Shown in pieces: positions 10,314 to 59,289 of a stretch of DNA of 64,000 nt. Source of the stretch: an uncultured Parabacteroides sp. (GTDB lineage Bacteria > Bacteroidota > Bacteroidia > Bacteroidales > Tannerellaceae); NCBI GenBank assembly GCA_900541965.1, contig UQLN01000002.1:16547-80546 (forward strand), given 5' to 3'. Every line of letters starts with the position of its first letter. Within the stretch, counting starts at the first letter, position 1. Made by a program: the position numbers and the translations under genes. The notes beneath the pieces were generated by a model. It did not search any database. It saw only the letters and a list, made by a program, of their open reading frames with translations, and had not been told where the DNA came from.

Positions 10314-12032
10314 ATGAAACATATAAAATCAATCTATACAGCAGGCGTAATGATTGCAGCAGCAACTTTTACATCGTGTACTGACCTGACAGAAAAACCC
10401 TATAGCATCCTGACTAATGATAACTATTTTACAGATAAAGCAAGTGTGGAAGCAACCGTACTCCGGCCCTATGAGCATGCCCAATGGTGCGGCTGGGACG
10501 GAGACCGCTGGCAATTGCAGGAACTGACAGCCGACCACTTCGTATGGACACAGAAAGGTCGCCATAGCTATGACGACGGAAAATGGGTCCGCCTGCACGA
10601 ACATAAATGGAATTACGATATGGACCAGATTAATGGCGGTTGGGTAGGACCTTATCAGGGTATCCAGCAGATTAACTCGCTATTCCGCGATTTCAAAAAT
10701 CTGGATTTCCAGGCTATGAAAATTACTGATGCGGAAAAATCGAACTATATGGGAGAGTTACGTGCTTTACGTGCCTGGTTCTATATCTTCCTGATTGACT
10801 TTTATCGTAATGTTCCCATTTTTACGGAGAATAACGCTCCTGATGAATTAATAGCACAATCTACGCCGGAAGAAGTTTTTGCTTTTATCGAGAAAGAATT
10901 GAAAGAAGTATTACCCACTCTGAAGCAGGAACACATCATCGGCAGATTTACCCAAGCTCCAACCGCGGCATTACTGGCTCGTATCTATTTTAATTCTAAA
11001 GTTTGGATTAACATAGACCGCTCAGCAGACTGTAAAACAATGTGTGAAGACATTATTGCCGGCAAATACGGACAATACAGCATCAATCAGCAGGATTATA
11101 AAGACCCGTTCCGTTCAGGTATCAAAGGGTACAAATCTCCGGAAAACCTGTTTGAGTTCCCTCACAAACGGAATGTTTACCAATTCGGAGGTTTCCATGA
11201 CTCCTTCTTGCATTATACTTCCGGACAGGCTTTAGGCAATCCGGATGGTGGTAATAACGGTATCCATCTGCAACCTTCACGCGGTTTAGATAACAACATT
11301 TATACATTCCCAAGCAAACTGGGAACTCCTTATGAAAAATATGCGGATTGCGACTATCGCAAGCAGCCGTTCAAAATAACAAGTGCAACAGGTGGCTATG
11401 AAGGCTTCTTTATGATTGGCAAGCAGTTTAAATTTGACTACTCAAAAGGATACGGTTACACAGATGAACCGGTAAAAGGAACAGAAGAATATAAAGGCGA
11501 ACCGCTAATCTATGTGGACCAGGTAGGGCGTTTTTCCGAAGGCATAGATGTTGCGAAGGAAAAAGGCTCACGGGTGACAACCGGTGAAGAAAATTCAGGT
11601 GTACGCTTCAATAAATTCCCATATCTGCAGGAAGGTGACGGATTGTATATGTGCCAATCTGCCCCGGAAATACGTCTGGCTGAAATCTATTATATGCTTG
11701 CAGAAATTCATTATCGTGCAGGCGATAAAACAAAAGCTGCAGAATTACTGGATTATGTACGTATAAGAAATTATCCGGCTGACCAATGGAACAAGTATAG
11801 CTATGCACAGAATCCGGCTTTACTTACAGACCAGGAATTTATCGATGAATGGGGACGCGAGTTTATTGGTGAACGCCGTCGCCGCATGGACCTGGTTCGT
11901 TGGGGACGTTTTGGCGACACATGGTGGGACAAAAGTGCTGATCCGAACGATAAAGAATACTCTATTTTCCCCATCCCTAAAAGACAACTGGATGCTAATC
12001 CTTTGTTAAAACAAACAACGAAAGGTTGGTAA
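10314..12032 (+). CDS. susD: SusD/RagB-family nutrient-binding outer membrane lipoprotein.
   Basis: 572 aa. The lipoprotein signal reads AAATFTSCTD. Size and W/Y-rich composition are typical of SusD. It sits immediately downstream of SusC. Confidence 0.85.
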   Translation: MKHIKSIYTAGVMIAAATFTSCTDLTEKPYSILTNDNYFTDKASVEATVLRPYEHAQWCGWDGDRWQLQELTADHFVWTQKGRHSYDDGKWVRLHEHKWNYDMDQINGGWVGPYQGIQQINSLFRDFKNLDFQAMKITDAEKSNYMGELRALRAWFYIFLIDFYRNVPIFTENNAPDELIAQSTPEEVFAFIEKELKEVLPTLKQEHIIGRFTQAPTAALLARIYFNSKVWINIDRSADCKTMCEDIIAGKYGQYSINQQDYKDPFRSGIKGYKSPENLFEFPHKRNVYQFGGFHDSFLHYTSGQALGNPDGGNNGIHLQPSRGLDNNIYTFPSKLGTPYEKYADCDYRKQPFKITSATGGYEGFFMIGKQFKFDYSKGYGYTDEPVKGTEEYKGEPLIYVDQVGRFSEGIDVAKEKGSRVTTGEENSGVRFNKFPYLQEGDGLYMCQSAPEIRLAEIYYMLAEIHYRAGDKTKAAELLDYVRIRNYPADQWNKYSYAQNPALLTDQEFIDEWGREFIGERRRRMDLVRWGRFGDTWWDKSADPNDKEYSIFPIPKRQLDANPLLKQTTKGW

Positions 12033-24790: not shown

Positions 24791-24885
24791 CTTTAAAAGT
24801 AATCTCTTAGAAAAATCCTATTTCCCATTTTGCCATGTCCGAAACTTTATCTATTTTTCGGTGTACATTAATCAACAAGTGTATT

Positions 24886-25548
24886 ATGAAAAAACAGATT
24901 TTGATTCTCATCGCATTTCTGGCAGTCCTAACAAACTTATCAGCTCAGGAAGACATAGACAGCACACAATTTCTATTCAACAAATTCCAGGATGGCTCCG
25001 TTTACTATAAAGACGGACGAGTTTATAATGCCCGGTTAAATTATCATTTATGGGGTAACTGCTTTCTTTTTATAGACACAAATGACGACAATGCCATAAA
25101 AGAGTTTGGAGAGGTCAATCAAATCAGTGCGGTGAAGGTTGCCGGCAAATCTTTCCTTATGCAAAATGACGGCAGTGCATACGAAGTTATCCAATTTGAC
25201 CCGATGATAGCAGTCAAGCACCAGGGACGGTTCAAGAAAGAAGGGAAAAATTCCGGCTACGGAGGACGCTCGGAGACTGGCTCCATCGATGCCTTTTCCA
25301 GTATCAGGAATAATGGGGAAAGCCATACCCTGTCGACCGGCAAGTATATCCTTATCGGCATAGATAAAGCCTACCTGATTGAAAAAGACGGTAAAAGGAA
25401 ATCTTTCAGGACAGAAAAACAATTTCTGAAACTCTATCCGAAACATACGGACGAACTACAAAAATATATCGAAGAGAAAAAAGTAAAACTCAATGATGTC
25501 GAACAAATGACAAAATTGATTCGTTATGCCAATACCCTGAAACCATAA
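24886..25548 (+). CDS. Secreted hypothetical protein.
   Basis: Start moved to the internal ATG, which gives the signal peptide MKKQILILIAFLAVLTNLSAQ. No recognisable domain. Confidence 0.5.
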   Translation: MKKQILILIAFLAVLTNLSAQEDIDSTQFLFNKFQDGSVYYKDGRVYNARLNYHLWGNCFLFIDTNDDNAIKEFGEVNQISAVKVAGKSFLMQNDGSAYEVIQFDPMIAVKHQGRFKKEGKNSGYGGRSETGSIDAFSSIRNNGESHTLSTGKYILIGIDKAYLIEKDGKRKSFRTEKQFLKLYPKHTDELQKYIEEKKVKLNDVEQMTKLIRYANTLKP

Positions 25549-25553
25549 ACATA

Positions 25554-25590
25554 AAAAAGGTTAGCTGAAATTTATCAACCAACCTTTTTT
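25554..25590. terminator. Bidirectional rho-independent terminator between the convergent hypothetical gene and typA.
   Basis: AAAAAAGGTTAGCTGA...TCAACCAACCTTTTTT: a stem with A-run and T-run on either side. Confidence 0.7.
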
Positions 25591-25595
25591 AGCAT

Positions 25596-25653
25596 ATCAT
25601 AGTTATTATTTTTCCAAATCATAGTTATGAATTTGAAAAACCATAGTTATGAT
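25596..25653. repeat. Three direct copies of CATAGTTATG (the first reads CATAGTTATT) at exact 22-bp spacing. The same element recurs at 59112..59169.
   Basis: Copies start at 25598, 25620 and 25642. The spacers contain TTTGAAAAA / TTTTTCCAAAT. The element sits directly after the typA stop. Confidence 0.8.
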
Positions 25654-25668
25654 TTTTTTACGGAGAAC

Positions 25669-27465
25669 TTATCTTCCCTGACGTTTACGCTCTATTTCAT
25701 CCAGAATGACTTTACGCATACGCATATTATTAGGAGTGATTTCCACATATTCATCACCCTTAATATATTCCAACGCATCTTCCAGGCTGAATACAACAGG
25801 AGGAGCCAATGATACTTTATCATCAGAACCAGAAGCACGCATATTGGTCAGTTTCTTTGATTTGGTAACATTCACAACCAAATCATTATCTTTCGAATGT
25901 TCACCAACCACCTGTCCGGCATACACTTCTTCACCCGGTGCAATAAAGAAACGTCCGCGTGATTGAAGGTTATTCAAGGCATAAGCAAAAGCAGAACCTG
26001 TTTCCATAGCGATAATAGAACCGTTCACACGACGTTCGATTTCACCTTTCCAAGGTTGGTATTCAAGGAAACGGTGTGCCATAATCGCTTCACCGGCTGA
26101 AGCAGTCAACACTGCATTGTTCAAACCGATAATACCACGGGAAGGAATTGTAAATTCCAGATGCATACGACCATTCTTGCTTTCCATCATGGTCATTTCA
26201 CCCTTACGTTTTGTCACCATATCGATGATGCGGCTGGAACAATCTTCCGGCAAGTTAACTGTAAGCTGTTCAACCGGCTCGCATTTCTCACCATTGATTT
26301 CCTTGATGATTACCTGTGGCTGGCCTACCTGCAATTCATAGCCTTCACGACGCATTGTTTCAATCAAGACAGACAAGTGAAGCACACCGCGTCCGTATAC
26401 CAACCATGAATCGGCAGATTCAGTCGGAACAACACGCAAAGCCAGATTCTTATCCAACTCTTTCTGTAAACGGTCGTAAATATGACGTGAAGTAACGAAC
26501 TTACCATCTTTTCCGAAGAACGGAGAATTGTTGATAGTGAAGAGCATAGACATTGTCGGCTCGTCAATAGCTATTGTAGGCAGTGGCTCCGGTTCATTTA
26601 CATCGGCAATTGTTTCTCCGATTTCGAAACCATCGATACCGATAATCGCACAAATATCACCGGATTTAACCGATGAAACTTTTGTTCGTCCCAAACCCTC
26701 GAATACATCAACTTCTTTGATTCTGGATTTAACCATCGACCCATCGCGTTTGCAAAGCATGATATCCTGGCCTTCTTTCAACTCTCCACGATGAACACGT
26801 CCCACAGCGATACGTCCTACATATTTGGAATAGTCCAAAGAAGTAATCAACATCTGAGGCGTTCCTTCCAATATCTCCGGTCCCGGAATATATTCGATAA
26901 TAGCGTCCAGCAACGCATAAATATCTTCTTTCGGTTCATTCCAGTCTGTAGACATCCAACCCTGTTTTGCCGAACCATAGATAGTAGGAAAATCCAACTG
27001 CTCTTCCGTTGCATCCAAGCTAAACATCAGGTCGAACACCATTTCCTGCACTTCCGAAGGACGGCAGTTCGGTTTGTCTACCTTGTTAATAACCACGATT
27101 GGCTTTAAACCCATCTGAATAGCTTTCTGAAGAACGAAACGGGTCTGAGGCATCGGACCTTCGAAGGCATCTACCAACAGAAGGCAACCGTCCGCCATAT
27201 TCAATACACGTTCAACTTCACCTCCGAAATCGGCGTGTCCCGGAGTATCAATAATATTGATTTTGCAATCCTTGTAATTAATAGATACGTTTTTGGCGAG
27301 AATTGTAATTCCTCGTTCACGTTCCAAATCATTGTTGTCCAGGAACTGATCCGGCTCTGCCTGTCCTTCACGGAAAAGCTTACCGGCTAATAACATCTTA
27401 TCCACGAGCGTTGTTTTGCCGTGGTCTACGTGCGCGATAATCGCGATGTTTCTGATTTTTTGCAT
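25669..27465 (-). CDS. typA: Translational GTPase TypA/BipA.
   Basis: 598 aa starting [22 protein letters not shown], with the DTPGHADF G-domain and EF-G-like domains. Confidence 0.95.
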
Positions 27466-28654: not shown

Positions 28655-30310
28655 ATGGAAGTACAATTACAGAATAAGACACTCGGACAGTGGATGGAAC
28701 ACTGGGCCGAAACTACCCCGGATAAAGAATACCTGGTATATTCCGACCGTGACCTGCGTTTCACATGGAAAGAGTTCAATGAACGGGTAGACAGGATGGC
28801 GAAAGGAATGCTTTCTATCGGCATTAAGCACGGAACTCATGTGGGTATCTGGGCCACGAATGTGCCCGACTGGCTGACATTCCTGTATGCCGGTGCCAAA
28901 ATCGGAGCCGTTTTAGTCACTATAAATACCAACTACAAACAGAACGAACTAGAGTTTCTGGTTGAAAATGCAGATATACATACGTTATGCATTACCGACG
29001 GCGTATTCGATGGAAGCTATATAGATATGGTATACACCATGCTCCCCGAGTTAAAAGAATCACAACGCGGATACCTGAAAAGTAAACGTTTCCCGGTTTT
29101 AAAGAATGTAGTATACATCGGACAGGAGAAATACCGTGGAATGTATAACACGCCGGAATTACTTTTGCTGGGAGAAAATATCAGTGACGATAAACTGGAT
29201 GCTGCCAAAAAACTTGTCGATTGCCACGATGTTGTCAATATGCAATATACTTCCGGTACGACCGGTTTCCCTAAAGGGGTCATGTTGACACATTACAATA
29301 TCGCAAATAACGGCTTGCTGACCGGCGAACATATGAAATTCACAGCCGCCGACAAGCTTTGCTGTTGTGTCCCTCTTTTCCACTGTTTCGGTGTTGTACT
29401 GGCATCCATGAACGTTCTGACACACGGTTGTACACAGGTTATGGTCGAGAAGTTTGACCCGCTGGTTGTACTGGCATCCATACATAAAGAACGATGCACG
29501 GCACTTTACGGAGTACCCACCATGTTTATTGCCGAGTTGAACCATCCGATGTTCCCCATGTTCGACCTGACTTCACTCCGGACCGGAATCATGGCCGGCT
29601 CGCTCTGCCCGGTAGAACTGATGCGCCAGGTAGAAGAAAAGATGTTCATGCGTGTAACCAGTGTATACGGGTTAACCGAAGCATCACCTGGTATGACTCA
29701 TTCCCGTATTGATGATGATGCGGATATACGATATAATACTGTCGGACGTGATTTCGAATTTACAGAAGTACGTGTTATCGATCCCGAAACAGGCGAAGAA
29801 TGCCCGGTTGGCGTACAAGGAGAAATGTGTAACCGTGGTTACAATACAATGAAAGGTTACTACAATAATCCGGCTGCGACCAATGAAGTAATCGATAAAA
29901 GCGGCTTTCTTCATAGTGGCGACCTTGGCGTGAAAGATGAAAACGGCAACTACCGTATCACCGGACGCATTAAGGATATGATTATCCGCGGAGGAGAAAA
30001 TATCTATCCGCGCGAAATAGAAGAATTCCTTTACCATCTGGAAGGAGTGAAAGATGTGCAGGTAGCAGCTGTTCCTTCCAAGAAATACGGGGAAGAAGTC
30101 GGCGCCTTTATCATCCTCCATGAAGATGCATCCCTGACAGAAGAAATAGTAAAAGATTTCTGTCGTGGTAAAATTGCCCGCCACAAAATACCGAAATACA
30201 TCTTTTTTGTAGATACCTTCCCTATGACAGGAAGCGGTAAAATCCAAAAATTCAAGCTGAAAGATTTAGGACTGCAATTACTGCTGGAAAAAGGAATCGA
30301 ACCAGCTTAA
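28655..30310 (+). CDS. AMP-dependent acyl-CoA synthetase/ligase.
   Basis: 551 aa with the AMP-binding motif [16 protein letters not shown], plus [20 protein letters not shown] and GKIQKF near the C-terminus. Confidence 0.85.
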
Positions 30311-30313
30311 AGA

Positions 30314-30445
30314 GTTGACAGTTGACAAGTGACAGTTGACAGTTCGCTTCCGGTATATAAACTGGTTGAAGCGGGAATAACTGTCAACTGTCACTTGTCA
30401 ACTGTCAACTACTACCTACTCCTGCCACTTGTCAATTATCAACTG
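30314..30445. repeat. Inverted-repeat element. Four tandem TGACAGT heptamers form the left arm. A conserved core follows (CTTCGCTTCCGGTATATAAACTGGTTGAAGCG). Four inverted heptamers (CTGTCAA) form the right arm.
   Basis: Left arm 30314-30342 is GTTGACAGTTGACAAGTGACAGTTGACAG. Right arm 30381-30409 is its perfect reverse complement. Additional partial heptamers lie downstream. A homologous element sits at 31941-32046. Confidence 0.85.
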
Positions 30446-30518: not shown

Positions 30519-31937
30519 ATGGTATCTTTATTTCCAACAGATTTGCCATACAAAGTGGCAGATATGAATCTGGTGGATTTCGGTCGCAAAGAGATTGAAA
30601 TCGCCGAACACGAAATGCCGGGTCTTATGGCTCTTCGCCAGAAATATGCAGACCAGAAACCGCTGAAAGGCGCGCGCATCACCGGCTCACTGCACATGAC
30701 TATCCAGACGGCAGTGTTAATCGAAACATTAGTTGCGTTGGGAGCAGATGTCCGTTGGGCAAGCTGCAACATCTTCTCCACACAGGACCATGCTGCGGCA
30801 GCTATTGCAGCAAGTGGAGTTCCTGTTTTTGCCTGGAAAGGTGAAACACTGGAAGAATACTGGTGGTGTACTGAAATGGCACTCCGTTTCCCCGGTGGCA
30901 AAGGACCGCATATGATTGTAGACGATGGTGGCGATGCCTCCCTGCTGATACATATGGGATACCGCGCAGAGAATGATGCAGAAACCATTAACCGTAAAGG
31001 CAGCAATCATGAAGAGCAAGTAATTCTGGATACGCTTCACCGCATTCTTGAGGAAGATAATGCACGCTGGCATCGTACGGTTGCTGAAATGAAAGGTGTT
31101 TCCGAAGAAACAACAACAGGCGTACACCGTTTGTACCAGATGATGGAAAGAGGCGAACTGCTGGTTCCCGCCATCAATGTAAACGACTCTGTTACAAAAT
31201 CCAAGTTTGACAACCTGTACGGTTGCCGCGAATCGTTGGCAGACGGTATCAAACGTGCTACAGATGTTATGATTGCAGGAAAAGTTGTTGTCGTTGCAGG
31301 ATACGGCGATGTAGGAAAAGGATGTTCACATTCCATGCGTTCATACGGAGCCCGTGTGTTGGTAACTGAAATTGACCCGATTTGTGCTTTACAGGCAGCC
31401 ATGGAAGGTTTTGAAGTTACAACGATGGAAGAAGCTGTGAAAGAAGGTAACATCTTCGTCACGACAACCGGAAACTGCGACATTATCACAATCGAGCATA
31501 TGTCACAGATGAAAGACCAGGCGATTGTTTGCAACATCGGTCACTTCGATAACGAAATACAGGTAGAAAAGTTGGTTAACTTCCCGAATATCAAACATAC
31601 CAATATCAAACCGCAGGTTGATAAATATACATTCCCGACAGGGAACTCTATCTTCTTGCTGGCAGAAGGTCGTTTGGTTAACCTGGGTTGTGCAACCGGC
31701 CACCCTTCTTTCGTAATGAGTAATTCTTTCACGAACCAAGTATTGGCACAGATGGATTTATGGACAATGCCTTATGAAATAGGTGTATATCGTCTGCCTA
31801 AACGTCTGGACGAAGAAGTTGCACGTCTCCACCTTGAACGTATCGGCGTAAAACTGAGCAAACTGACACAGAAACAGGCCGATTATATAGGTGTTCCTGT
31901 AGAAGGGCCCTATAAAGCGGACCACTACAGATACTAA
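30519..31937 (+). CDS. ahcY: Adenosylhomocysteinase (S-adenosyl-L-homocysteine hydrolase).
   Basis: 472 aa with a strong AhcY signature throughout: [10 protein letters not shown]..., the NAD-binding GYGDVGKGC, and the end ...HYRY. Confidence 0.95.
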
Positions 31938-31940
31938 TTC

Positions 31941-32046
31941 AGGTGACAGGTGACAATTGACAGGTGACAGTCAGGCTTCGCGTCCGATATACAAAATCGG
32001 TTGAAAGCTGAAGAATTGTCAACTGTCATTTGCTACTTGTCAACTG
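31941..32046. repeat. Second, more degenerate copy of the heptamer inverted-repeat element.
   Basis: Left arm GGTGACAGGTGACAATTGACAGGTGACAGT. Core CTTCGCGTCCGATATACAAAATCGGTTGAAAGC. Right arm TTGTCAACTGTCAtttgctaCTTGTCAACTG. Same orientation and the same 7-bp periodicity as the 30314 element. Confidence 0.8.
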
Positions 32047-32061
32047 CTAACCGATTTCGCG

Positions 32062-58707: not shown

Positions 58708-59111
58708 AATTATATTTCCCTTTGAAAGGTCCTCCTGTTTTTAATTGCCATCCAGATACATAAAGGTTCGTCACTCCCGATATGGGAATAACAAACATAT
58801 GACAAAGATAACACGTTTATATATATCTAAAGGAGTTGAACCTGAAAAACCACAATAAACCAGTTCTATAGCAAATAAAAACAGGGAGGAAGAACAGAAC
58901 CTGCCTGTCTTCCTCCCTTTCCATAGTTAAGGTCCACTGTAAATTGCAATTTTACAAGTAGAGTTTCTTGTGTGCTTTTATTAATGCCTACCCTCTATTT
59001 CCCTCTTTCTGTTTTTATAAACGGACTTGAATATATATTATTATATATGCCGTAAAAAAAATTAAAGACACAAATCTAAACAAGCTCTATAGACAGGACA
59101 CTTTTTCCTAA

Positions 59112-59169
59112 TTCATAGTTATGGTTTTTGAAAATCATAACTATGAATTCAGAAAACCATAACTATGAA
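59112..59169. repeat. Second copy of the CATAGTTATG x3 element at 22-bp spacing. Here one unit is forward and two are inverted (CATAACTATG).
   Basis: Units start at 59114 (CATAGTTATG), 59136 (CATAACTATG) and 59158 (CATAACTATG). The spacers are GTTTTTGAAAAT / AATTCAGAAAAC. It lies between the metG 3' end and the ugd start. Confidence 0.8.
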
Positions 59170-59197: not shown

Positions 59198-59246
59198 TAT
59201 ACGAAGCGACCCCAAAAAGCTATGCAATATTCATTTGCATAACTTT
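59198..59246. terminator. Hairpin terminator downstream of metG (stem GACCCCAAAAAG / CTTTTTGGGGTC).
   Basis: A 12-bp perfect stem with internal A/T runs and a 22-nt loop. It sits 44 nt from the metG stop. Confidence 0.55.
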
Positions 59247-59289
59247 TTGGGGTCACTCTCTGGCTATCTTAGCCTATATATAAGTAACC

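Follow-up and report, generated by a model that had tools for sequence, protein, structure and literature searches.

Two short arrays in the window, the name used here for the whole 64,000-nucleotide stretch of Parabacteroides DNA under analysis, are copies of a dispersed, non-coding, multi-copy intergenic repeat family. The family is gained and lost between species, and its spacers are far less well preserved than its decamer and 22-bp phase. The feature is genuine and not an ordinary one; among the dispersed bacterial intergenic repeats, to which it belongs, it represents no new category. In the best available explanation, to which we give an even chance, it is a minisatellite-like dispersed repeat whose decamer would be the recognition site of a symmetric dimeric protein acting in trans. 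The interest of the family lies in a 10-bp palindrome conserved across phyla, in the strict 12-bp gap and in the testable prediction of a specific binding protein.

Two phased arrays in the window

Each array contains three decamers whose starts lie exactly 22 bp apart. On the + strand, site 1 reads CATAGTTATT at 25598, CATAGTTATG at 25620 and CATAGTTATG at 25642, and site 2 reads CATAGTTATG at 59114, CATAACTATG at 59136 and CATAACTATG at 59158. The features at both sites are listed below.

25552..25591, no strand: terminator hairpin flanked by A and T runs, common to the convergent genes; outside the repeat
25596..25653, - strand: repeat element copy 1 (site 1), three 22-bp units; nhmmer match 25596-25655, minus, E 2.8e-12
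25642..25651, - strand: copy 1 unit 1 decamer, CATAACTATG on the - strand
25620..25629, - strand: copy 1 unit 2 decamer, CATAACTATG on the - strand; predicted hairpin apex
25598..25607, - strand: degenerate unit 3 decamer of copy 1, AATAACTATG on the - strand; the orthologue in HRGM_3439 has GATAACTATG
59103..59169, + strand: repeat element copy 2 (site 2), spacer-like leader and three 22-bp units, near-perfect palindrome; nhmmer match 59103-59169, plus, E 5e-16
59114..59123, + strand: copy 2 unit 1 decamer, CATAGTTATG, GT centre
59136..59145, + strand: copy 2 unit 2 decamer, CATAACTATG, AC centre; predicted hairpin apex
59158..59167, + strand: copy 2 unit 3 decamer, CATAACTATG, AC centre
59205..59257, no strand: hairpin with 23-nt arms just 3' of the metG stop; context, not part of the repeat

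The - strand of site 1 could be aligned with the + strand of site 2 over about 57 bp, the T-run/A-run spacers included, with the shared letters TCATA..TATGGTTTTT.AAA.TCATAACTATGA.TT...AAAA..ATAACTATGA. The two sites are thus oppositely oriented copies of one element.

The pattern CATANNTATG-N12-CATANNTATG with at most 3 mismatches was found 7 times in the window against 0.41 expected, and all 4 matches with 0-1 mismatch fall at sites 1 and 2. Similarly, CATARYTATG was found 6 times against 0.33 expected, 5 of these matches being in the two arrays. The phased pattern is far above expectation and its origin by chance is excluded, in agreement with the initial annotation, which had held that two phased loci could not be accidental. 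The same annotation had described three identical decamers at exact 22-bp phasing at both sites. The phasing and its recurrence were reproduced, and the identity of the decamers was reproduced in part: at site 1, the decamers at 25620 and 25642 are as described, whereas that at 25598 (CATAGTTATT) is one mismatch away, and at 59112-59169 the spacing is the same but only the decamer at 59114 reads CATAGTTATG on the + strand. Because those at 59136 and 59158 are CATAACTATG, with the centre AC instead of GT, site 2 is not the same direct triple.

Two isolated decamer-like sequences were also noted in the window. The perfectly palindromic CATAGCTATG lies at 10563-10572, outside the arrays, and CATAGTTAAG lies at 58922-58931, 192 bp from copy 2 and out of phase with it.

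Gene context of the window copies

Copy 1 is located between two convergent genes, one encoding a hypothetical protein of 237 aa (24835-25548, + strand) and the other being typA (25669-27465, - strand). The typA stop codon occupies 25669-25671 on the - strand; the array lies 17 nt past it and 5 nt before the terminator hairpin. The initial annotation had correctly placed the array next to the typA stop codon and a bidirectional terminator. The terminator scan assigns 25552-25591 to the - strand, and the terminator is read as bidirectional by its symmetry. Copy 2 is located 36 nt from the hairpin that follows metG and 406 bp upstream of ugd. The intergenic gap in which it lies measures 582 bp, from the metG stop (59290, - strand) to the start of ugd (58707, - strand). 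No credible ORF overlaps either site, and the window copies are without a demonstrable gene-specific role.

Size and taxonomic range of the family

The exact pattern CATAACTATG-N12-CATAACTATG was scanned against GTDB contigs containing one genome per species (596 Gb). The matches listed comprise at least 92 loci in 27 genomes, and by our own arithmetic about 1 match to 20 fixed bases is expected by chance in 596 Gb. At least 26 loci were found in Parabacteroides sp. Marseille-P3160 (P3160) and at least 25 in Parabacteroides sp. HRGM_Genome_3439 (HRGM_3439). Further matches listed belong to P. chinchillae, UMGS1511, P. distasonis, Massilibacteroides, Prevotella, Porphyromonas, several Bacteroidales from rumen and wastewater, Cruoricaptor (Flavobacteriales), Lentimicrobiaceae, Prolixibacteraceae, two Kiritimatiellia and one "Verrucomicrobia" metagenome genome. 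The "Verrucomicrobia" contig is genuinely Kiritimatiellia-like: its G+C content is 57%, and one neighbouring gene matches a protein named from Kiritimatiellia at 86% identity. The initial proposal of a small dispersed repeat family is, therefore, strongly supported, with dozens of intergenic copies per genome in several Parabacteroides and related arrays in many Bacteroidota and in Kiritimatiellia.

In P3160, the 26 copies sampled are evenly distributed over the 4.76-Mb chromosome, and no strand switch was observed among them; on this ground, a role in replication polarity (Ter- or KOPS-like) was rejected. The pattern CATAACTATG-N12-CATAACTATG had 0 matches in 2.9 million viral contigs. A BLAST search of a plasmid collection returned only intergenic sites on large P. 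distasonis records, and that of a phage collection returned only chance 25-nt matches. A phage or plasmid origin was rejected on these results.

The window also contains a second, unrelated intergenic palindromic repeat at 30311-30440 and 31937-32050, built of tandem heptamers (TGACAGT/TGACAAG/TGACAGG) in inverted blocks. Each of the two lies immediately past the stop of a + strand gene (28655-30310 and 30519-31937, respectively). With at most 1 mismatch, TGACAGNTGACA was found 11 times in the window against 0.63 expected, 10 of these matches being at 30311-30440 and 31937-32050. The orthologue of the gene at 30519-31937 is flanked instead by a CATAACTATG array in P3160 (locus L091) and in Massilibacteroides (L087).

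Unit anatomy and conservation

The unit is 22 bp long and consists of the degenerate palindrome CATA-RY-TATG and a 12-bp lineage-specific spacer. Arrays contain 2-10 units, and those of the window's family usually contain three. Steps between successive exact decamers were 22 bp in 164 cases, 44 bp in 4 and 66 bp in 2. The 22-bp count is biased because the search had fixed a 12-nt gap and, therefore, metagenomes were scanned with gaps of 1-31 allowed. Among the 120 loci obtained, gap 12 was found at 53 and gap 11 at 16, and each other gap was found at 1-6; nearly all gap-11 loci are one gut locus from many samples, and many loci with other gaps are unrelated things.

The central dinucleotide, counted over all in-phase units, was AC in 151, GT in 77, GC in 14 and AT in 7, and non-RY centres were rare. 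Since nearly all centres are RY, the motif is a degenerate perfect palindrome. An apparent inversion of a unit requires just two point changes, via a perfectly palindromic intermediate. The same decamer was found with at least 12 different spacer families in two phyla, true Kiritimatiellia contigs included. Spacers of several groups are given below.

Window's group: T-run/A-run
P3160: aacgaatgcaat
UR.bin43 and Lentimicrobiaceae: tacgacctcgag
WFFMC genomes: gaaataaatttg/cacgtaaatttg
RUG14757: ctgctgcggtgg
Kiritimatiellae: actctgggaagt

The family in P3160 is a larger variant of about 140 bp with the ends GTCAAAAG...CTTTTGAC.

Part of the apparent conservation of the decamer is an artefact of locus finding because the search fixed two exact decamers. 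Decamers that had not been selected by the search showed 98% per-site identity among 17 paralogous copies of HRGM_3439, compared with 78-84% for the spacers; among 18 paralogous copies of P3160, the values were 94-98% and 75-79%, respectively. No decayed extra copies were detected with the family profile in about 750 kb of loci and the window. Drift of the decamer was observed inside some long arrays (e.g., CATCCCTATG, CATGGCTACT and ACAGCTGTG), which is the behaviour expected of a neutral minisatellite.

In comparison with the orthologue in HRGM_3439 (about 96% identical), 0 of 67 columns differ in the site 2 array, versus 34 of 526 in the remaining intergenic region. In the site 1 array, 2 of 59 columns differ from the orthologue in the genome of about 94% identity (one substitution and one 1-bp indel), and the indication of constraint at this site is weak. 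At four P. distasonis-type loci with population variants, polymorphic columns were fewer in the arrays than in the flanks, the numbers being small.

At two loci (L023, 6050-6601, and L005, 4718-5269), several different arrays with a 22-bp period stand side by side (e.g., ttcactcaaaaCATGGCTACT, CATAACTATGttttactcaaaa and ggaagcttcgctcgacttaata), in L023 at a distance of 158 bp from a transposase gene of the IS256 family. The 22-bp period would thus seem to be a more general minisatellite property in these genomes. The 10-mer itself was also found within a different motif, AAAA(A/T)ACTTTACATAACTATG(G/A), at the marine loci L098, L106, L111, L125, L127, L130, L153, L164, L184 and L212. The gaps of this marine motif vary from 17 to 31 nt; it is unrelated to the 22-bp arrays and looks like a recurring promoter for a T7-like phage RNA polymerase.

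Turnover of the arrays

HRGM_3439 is the nearest relative of the window (94-96% nucleotide identity), and both sites occupy orthologous places in it (L090 and L030). The array 3' of typA is lacking in three sister species, namely, P. massiliensis, another Parabacteroides and Ca. P. intestinigallinarum, where the stop codon is simply followed by a terminator hairpin; the TypA proteins of these species are 91-94% identical to that of the window. Independent samples encoding an identical TypA or Ugd protein carry identical arrays. Because the typA copy is absent in the sister species and identical across samples, it is lineage-specific and stable within species. The connection with typA implied by the initial annotation was not confirmed, and the copy is neither a typA-specific control site nor an ancient control element of that gene.

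Among 27 aligned copies of the window's family, neither a target-site duplication at the borders nor a sharp element boundary was found, and filled and empty typA sites were not alignable. A difference in unit number was observed at one gut locus, where L126 has an extra 21-bp unit (CATAACTATGaaataaaaagt) compared with L100 and L117.

Three further observations concern individual loci. L177 (2560-2920), when compared with L128 and L117, is a hybrid in which two P. distasonis-type array loci are combined and a segment bordered by an array is exchanged; one junction is inside the decamer array, and the other coincides with the first codons of a gene for a tyrosine integrase and shows the microhomology GAAAGAT. 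In L138, when compared with L200 and L094, the right flanks of two different arrays are joined in inverted order. Both L138 and L177 are low-coverage gut contigs and are possibly array-mediated rearrangements or assembly chimeras. In another Parabacteroides (L217-L219), cactattttttccaaaatgtcatatt, located 10-45 nt past the typA stop, resembles the tail of one decamer joined through a spacer to the head of another; it could be what is left of a decayed array in this position, or the likeness could be accidental.

Folding potential and pairing tests

Both window copies are predicted to fold as one long hairpin with the middle decamer at its centre. The hairpin z-scores ranged from -3.8 to -7.6 overall (RNA, -4.6 to -6.5; DNA, -3.9 to -7.6). 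For site 2, the RNA energy was -27.8 kcal/mol (z = -6.2) and the DNA z-score was -7.6; for site 1, the RNA z-score was -4.6. In many lineages, the flanks of the decamer show a tendency to extend the palindrome, with complementarity of 0.46-0.64 at positions ±1 to ±4 versus 0.17-0.49 in shifted controls.

Covariation between spacers was not detected among 25 HRGM copies, in which 7.72 pairs of 12 were formed within copies and 7.87 between copies (p = 0.74). There were no compensatory changes at the decamer pairs 1-10, 2-9, 3-8 and 4-7, and many lineages have purely direct arrays that are incapable of forming a long hairpin. Because of this lack of covariation and the existence of direct arrays, the folding potential is attributed to the consensus (a palindromic core with T/A runs) and not to selection for pairing. 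The absence of pairing selection speaks for a site that is read in duplex DNA rather than for a structured RNA or a REP-type function.

In P3160, the outer A-run/stem and stem/T-run differ between copies, with complementarity kept. A gapped test of this outer stem gave 7.2 within copies versus 5.4 between copies (p ~0.0005), with only 12 copies, anchored by eye, so that this result calls for caution. It looks as if the P3160 copies sit inside terminator-like palindromes.

An Rfam search of the whole window at the gathering score gave 0 matches, and at E <=1 around site 2 it gave only sub-threshold noise of generic miRNA-precursor-like hairpins. A known structured RNA family was rejected, there being neither an Rfam match nor covariation.

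Placement relative to genes and search for a partner gene

Decamers separated by 12 nt form many phased arrays elsewhere. None of 94 arrays is located inside an ORF of at least 150 aa. The flanking gene pairs are convergent in 19 cases, divergent in 19 and tandem in 30, so that neither the promoter side nor the terminator side is preferred. By eye, the units of the window's family lack the Bacteroides -7 motif TAnnTTTG; a sigma-70 promoter scan is uninformative for Bacteroidota.

All-against-all clustering of the ORFs within 3 kb of the 94 arrays (about 750 kb) revealed no recurrent neighbour family. The few clusters of long proteins were inconsistent in their position relative to the arrays and, judged by size, look like common SusC/SusD-type families. 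Pfam analysis of 30 immediate neighbours identified ordinary genes, among them RF3, galactokinase, MnmA, peptidase M3, urocanase, topA, dxs, a SusC-like receptor and an AraC regulator; genes of mobile type were represented by one IS256 transposase (L023) and one tyrosine integrase (L117). No binding protein, transposase or recombinase was found as a consistent partner of the arrays, either by ORF clustering at the 94 loci or by Pfam among the 30 neighbours. A cis-encoded partner was rejected since no family recurs near the 94 arrays and the Pfam neighbours are mostly housekeeping genes.

Possible explanations

According to the preferred reading, which we hold at even chances, the decamer would be bound sequence-specifically by a symmetric (dimeric) protein whose gene lies elsewhere in the genome. 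With 2-10 sites two helical turns apart, the bound dimers would be on one face of the helix and could bind cooperatively. Array length would change via slippage of units, and arrays might reach new intergenic places by transposition-like mobilisation by the same protein or by recombination. It counts against this reading that the palindrome, at 10 bp, is shorter than is usual for helix-turn-helix dimers, that decamers drift in some long arrays, that the 27 aligned copies show neither a target-site duplication nor a sharp boundary, and that no binding protein, transposase or recombinase emerged from the clustering at the 94 loci and the Pfam analysis of 30 neighbours. A broader idea, which is speculative and in our opinion rather unlikely, is that the CATARYTATG arrays are landing pads for a conserved chromosomal DNA-binding protein of Bacteroidota and gut and rumen Kiritimatiellia and form a system of genome-wide organisation, insulation or recombination. 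Such a protein could be small, dimeric and ribbon-helix-helix-like, a nucleoid-associated factor or a domesticated transposase. If this idea were true, the arrays would be a genome-wide system and not junk repeats.

Two other explanations are a REP-like structural element and a neutral minisatellite. A REP-like structural element would act as a hairpin in RNA or single-stranded DNA, stabilising or terminating upstream transcripts or serving as the target of a RAYT-type transposase. The long hairpins predicted around the middle decamers agree with such a role, as do the position of copy 1 in the typA 3' region directly ahead of a terminator, the prolonged palindromes in many lineages, the copy-specific terminator-like outer stems of P3160 (12 copies picked by eye) and the different palindromic repeat at the 3' end of a window gene where P3160 has a decamer array. 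However, spacers do not covary within copies, decamer pairs show no compensatory changes, many lineages have purely direct arrays, divergent intergenic regions are as frequent as convergent ones, Rfam gave no match, the consensus has no GTAG/CGTC tag, and a recurrent RAYT-type neighbour was not found in about 750 kb of flanks; we therefore regard this role as possible but improbable. The arrays might also be a neutral minisatellite, i.e., a 22-bp unit of single origin spread by slippage and occasional recombination or horizontal transfer, in which the decamer is functionless and merely the slowest to decay. This would account for the variable unit number (2-10, with an extra unit in some samples), the drift of units in long arrays, the unrelated 22-bp arrays alongside in L005 and L023, the presence or absence of arrays between species and the breaking of metagenome contigs at arrays. 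It is made improbable by the recurrence of the same 10-mer and 12-bp gap with at least 12 unrelated spacers in two phyla, by the far better preservation of search-unselected decamers than of spacers among paralogues, by the avoidance of non-RY centres, which preserves the palindrome, and by the failure to find decayed copies in about 750 kb and the window.

The remaining two explanations are a local operator and iterons. LytTR sites are 9-10-bp direct repeats with 12-13-bp spacers and a GTT core and are located upstream of the regulated promoter. A local cis-regulatory operator of typA or of ugd/metG, e.g., a site of this type bound by a response regulator, would agree with the geometry and spacing of the arrays and with the position of copy 2 upstream of ugd. 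Nevertheless, it is quite improbable, since copy 1 is downstream of both convergent genes, the typA array is absent from sister species, dozens of copies stand beside unrelated housekeeping genes, and the motif is palindromic rather than directional, agreeing with only 7 of 9 positions of the LytTR consensus. Iterons of an integrated plasmid or phage replication origin would explain the 22-bp period, which is also that of R6K and pPS10. The initial suggestion of an iteron-like array for a dimeric or oligomeric protein is in accord with the anatomy, namely, a palindromic 10-mer, a strict 22-bp phase and decamers better kept than spacers. However, the arrays have no link to a replicon origin, rep gene, plasmid or phage, and no binder was found: rep or mobile-element genes are lacking near the window copies and rep genes at the 94 loci, the viral contigs contain no match, plasmid matches are confined to intergenic sites of large P. 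distasonis records, and copies are dispersed by the dozen along each chromosome. An integrated replicon is therefore extremely unlikely and is effectively refuted by context.

Small dispersed repeats are poorly catalogued in Bacteroidota, a dominant gut phylum, and the architecture of this family (10-bp palindromes at a constant distance of 12 bp, with spacers free to vary) is unusually clean. The presence of the core in many genera and a second phylum points to a specific recognition protein, for which an array could be used as bait. In practical terms, the arrays break metagenome assemblies, may mediate rearrangements and place strong predicted hairpins near the terminators and promoters of housekeeping genes. 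In the annotation of Parabacteroides, they should not be taken for gene-specific operators.

Comparison with known repeats and binding sites

A full-text literature search for the decamer returned nothing relevant, and searches on Parabacteroides and Bacteroidetes repeats yielded only general MITE and REP papers and the description of BrickBuilt. Several known systems were rejected. A CRISPR array is incompatible with 12-bp spacers that are themselves repeated and conserved; the sites of Tn7 TnsB, hix/lox-type sites, NikR, Fur and Zur boxes and IHF sites do not match the palindrome or the conservation pattern.

The 22-bp period is classic in the iterons of the R6K gamma origin and pPS10, which form a single origin beside a rep gene. 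The family shares with plasmid iterons the tandem period (repeats of about 17-22 bp) and the placement of bound proteins on one helical face, whereas its arrays are chromosomal, number dozens, have a palindromic core and lack a nearby rep gene; no rep gene is present among the genes flanking the window copies (typA, the hypothetical gene, metG and ugd) or at any of the 94 loci. Ribbon-helix-helix operators, such as MetJ met-boxes and ParR centromere repeats, are short tandem palindromes that bind dimers cooperatively at specific promoters or plasmid centromeres. Tandem short palindromes are common to both, and 10 bp suits recognition in a single major groove, but no ribbon-helix-helix gene is linked to the arrays, and their spacers of 12 bp greatly exceed those of met-box arrays. 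MIRU of Mycobacterium and STAR of Staphylococcus are scattered intergenic minisatellites with units of 40-100 bp and no palindromic core, each found in one genus. They resemble the family in being chromosome-wide intergenic tandem repeats of variable unit number and differ from it in that its unit is 22 bp, has a palindromic core and occurs in many genera.

Like MITEs, the arrays are multi-copy (at least 25-26 loci per genome) and intergenic (0 of 94 in ORFs), but the 27 aligned copies show no target-site duplication. The whole element is quasi-palindromic, and in the window's family no discrete terminal repeat stands apart from the units; the P3160 family has the ends GTCAAAAG...CTTTTGAC. Among the 30 neighbours analysed, the only IS gene is of the IS256 family (L023). 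REP, BIME and REPIN sequences of Proteobacteria are likewise short, palindromic, multi-copy and extragenic and often stand by terminators. Their recognition is attributed to a trans-acting protein (RAYT) and to host proteins. REPs are single GC-rich hairpins of 20-40 bp with a GTAG or CGTC tag (PMC3733652). The family shares the predicted hairpin, but its consensus has no such tag and a RAYT neighbour was not found in the ORF clustering; in addition, it consists of phased tandem arrays of an AT-rich 10-mer that do not avoid promoter-side regions.

Among published elements, BrickBuilt, a minisatellite-MITE of P. gingivalis (Klein et al. 2015), is the closest analogue. It consists of 23-nt tandem direct repeats without unique spacers and has about 19 dispersed copies per genome, always intergenic, with a variable repeat number and long predicted stem-loops (PMC4596501). 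BrickBuilt has a defined leader and tail, whose terminal inverted repeats match those of ISPg elements, and was reported to be P. gingivalis-specific, with no BLAST matches elsewhere (PMC4596501). Both families occur in Bacteroidales as intergenic, multi-copy elements with a tandem unit of about two helical turns and a variable number of units. The BrickBuilt unit AGAYCATARTATCCTCTCRTRTG contains CATARTAT, which seems to resemble the CATARYTAT of the window's family, while the rest of the unit differs. Unlike BrickBuilt, the window's family has a 22-bp unit, mostly three units per array and no leader, tail or IS-like inverted repeats, and its core spans many genera and two phyla.

Arrays of UR.bin43 (L005, L009, L043, L045 and L059), L019 and L107 are located at contig ends and have conserved flanking segments. 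In the UR.bin43 type, the flanks contain …attggtgtcagggaaaataagtg… on one side and …gaggaaggyttgcaaccaaaa… on the other and are reminiscent of the BrickBuilt leader and tail. The arrays of L005 and L011 adjoin putative tRNA genes, as read by eye.
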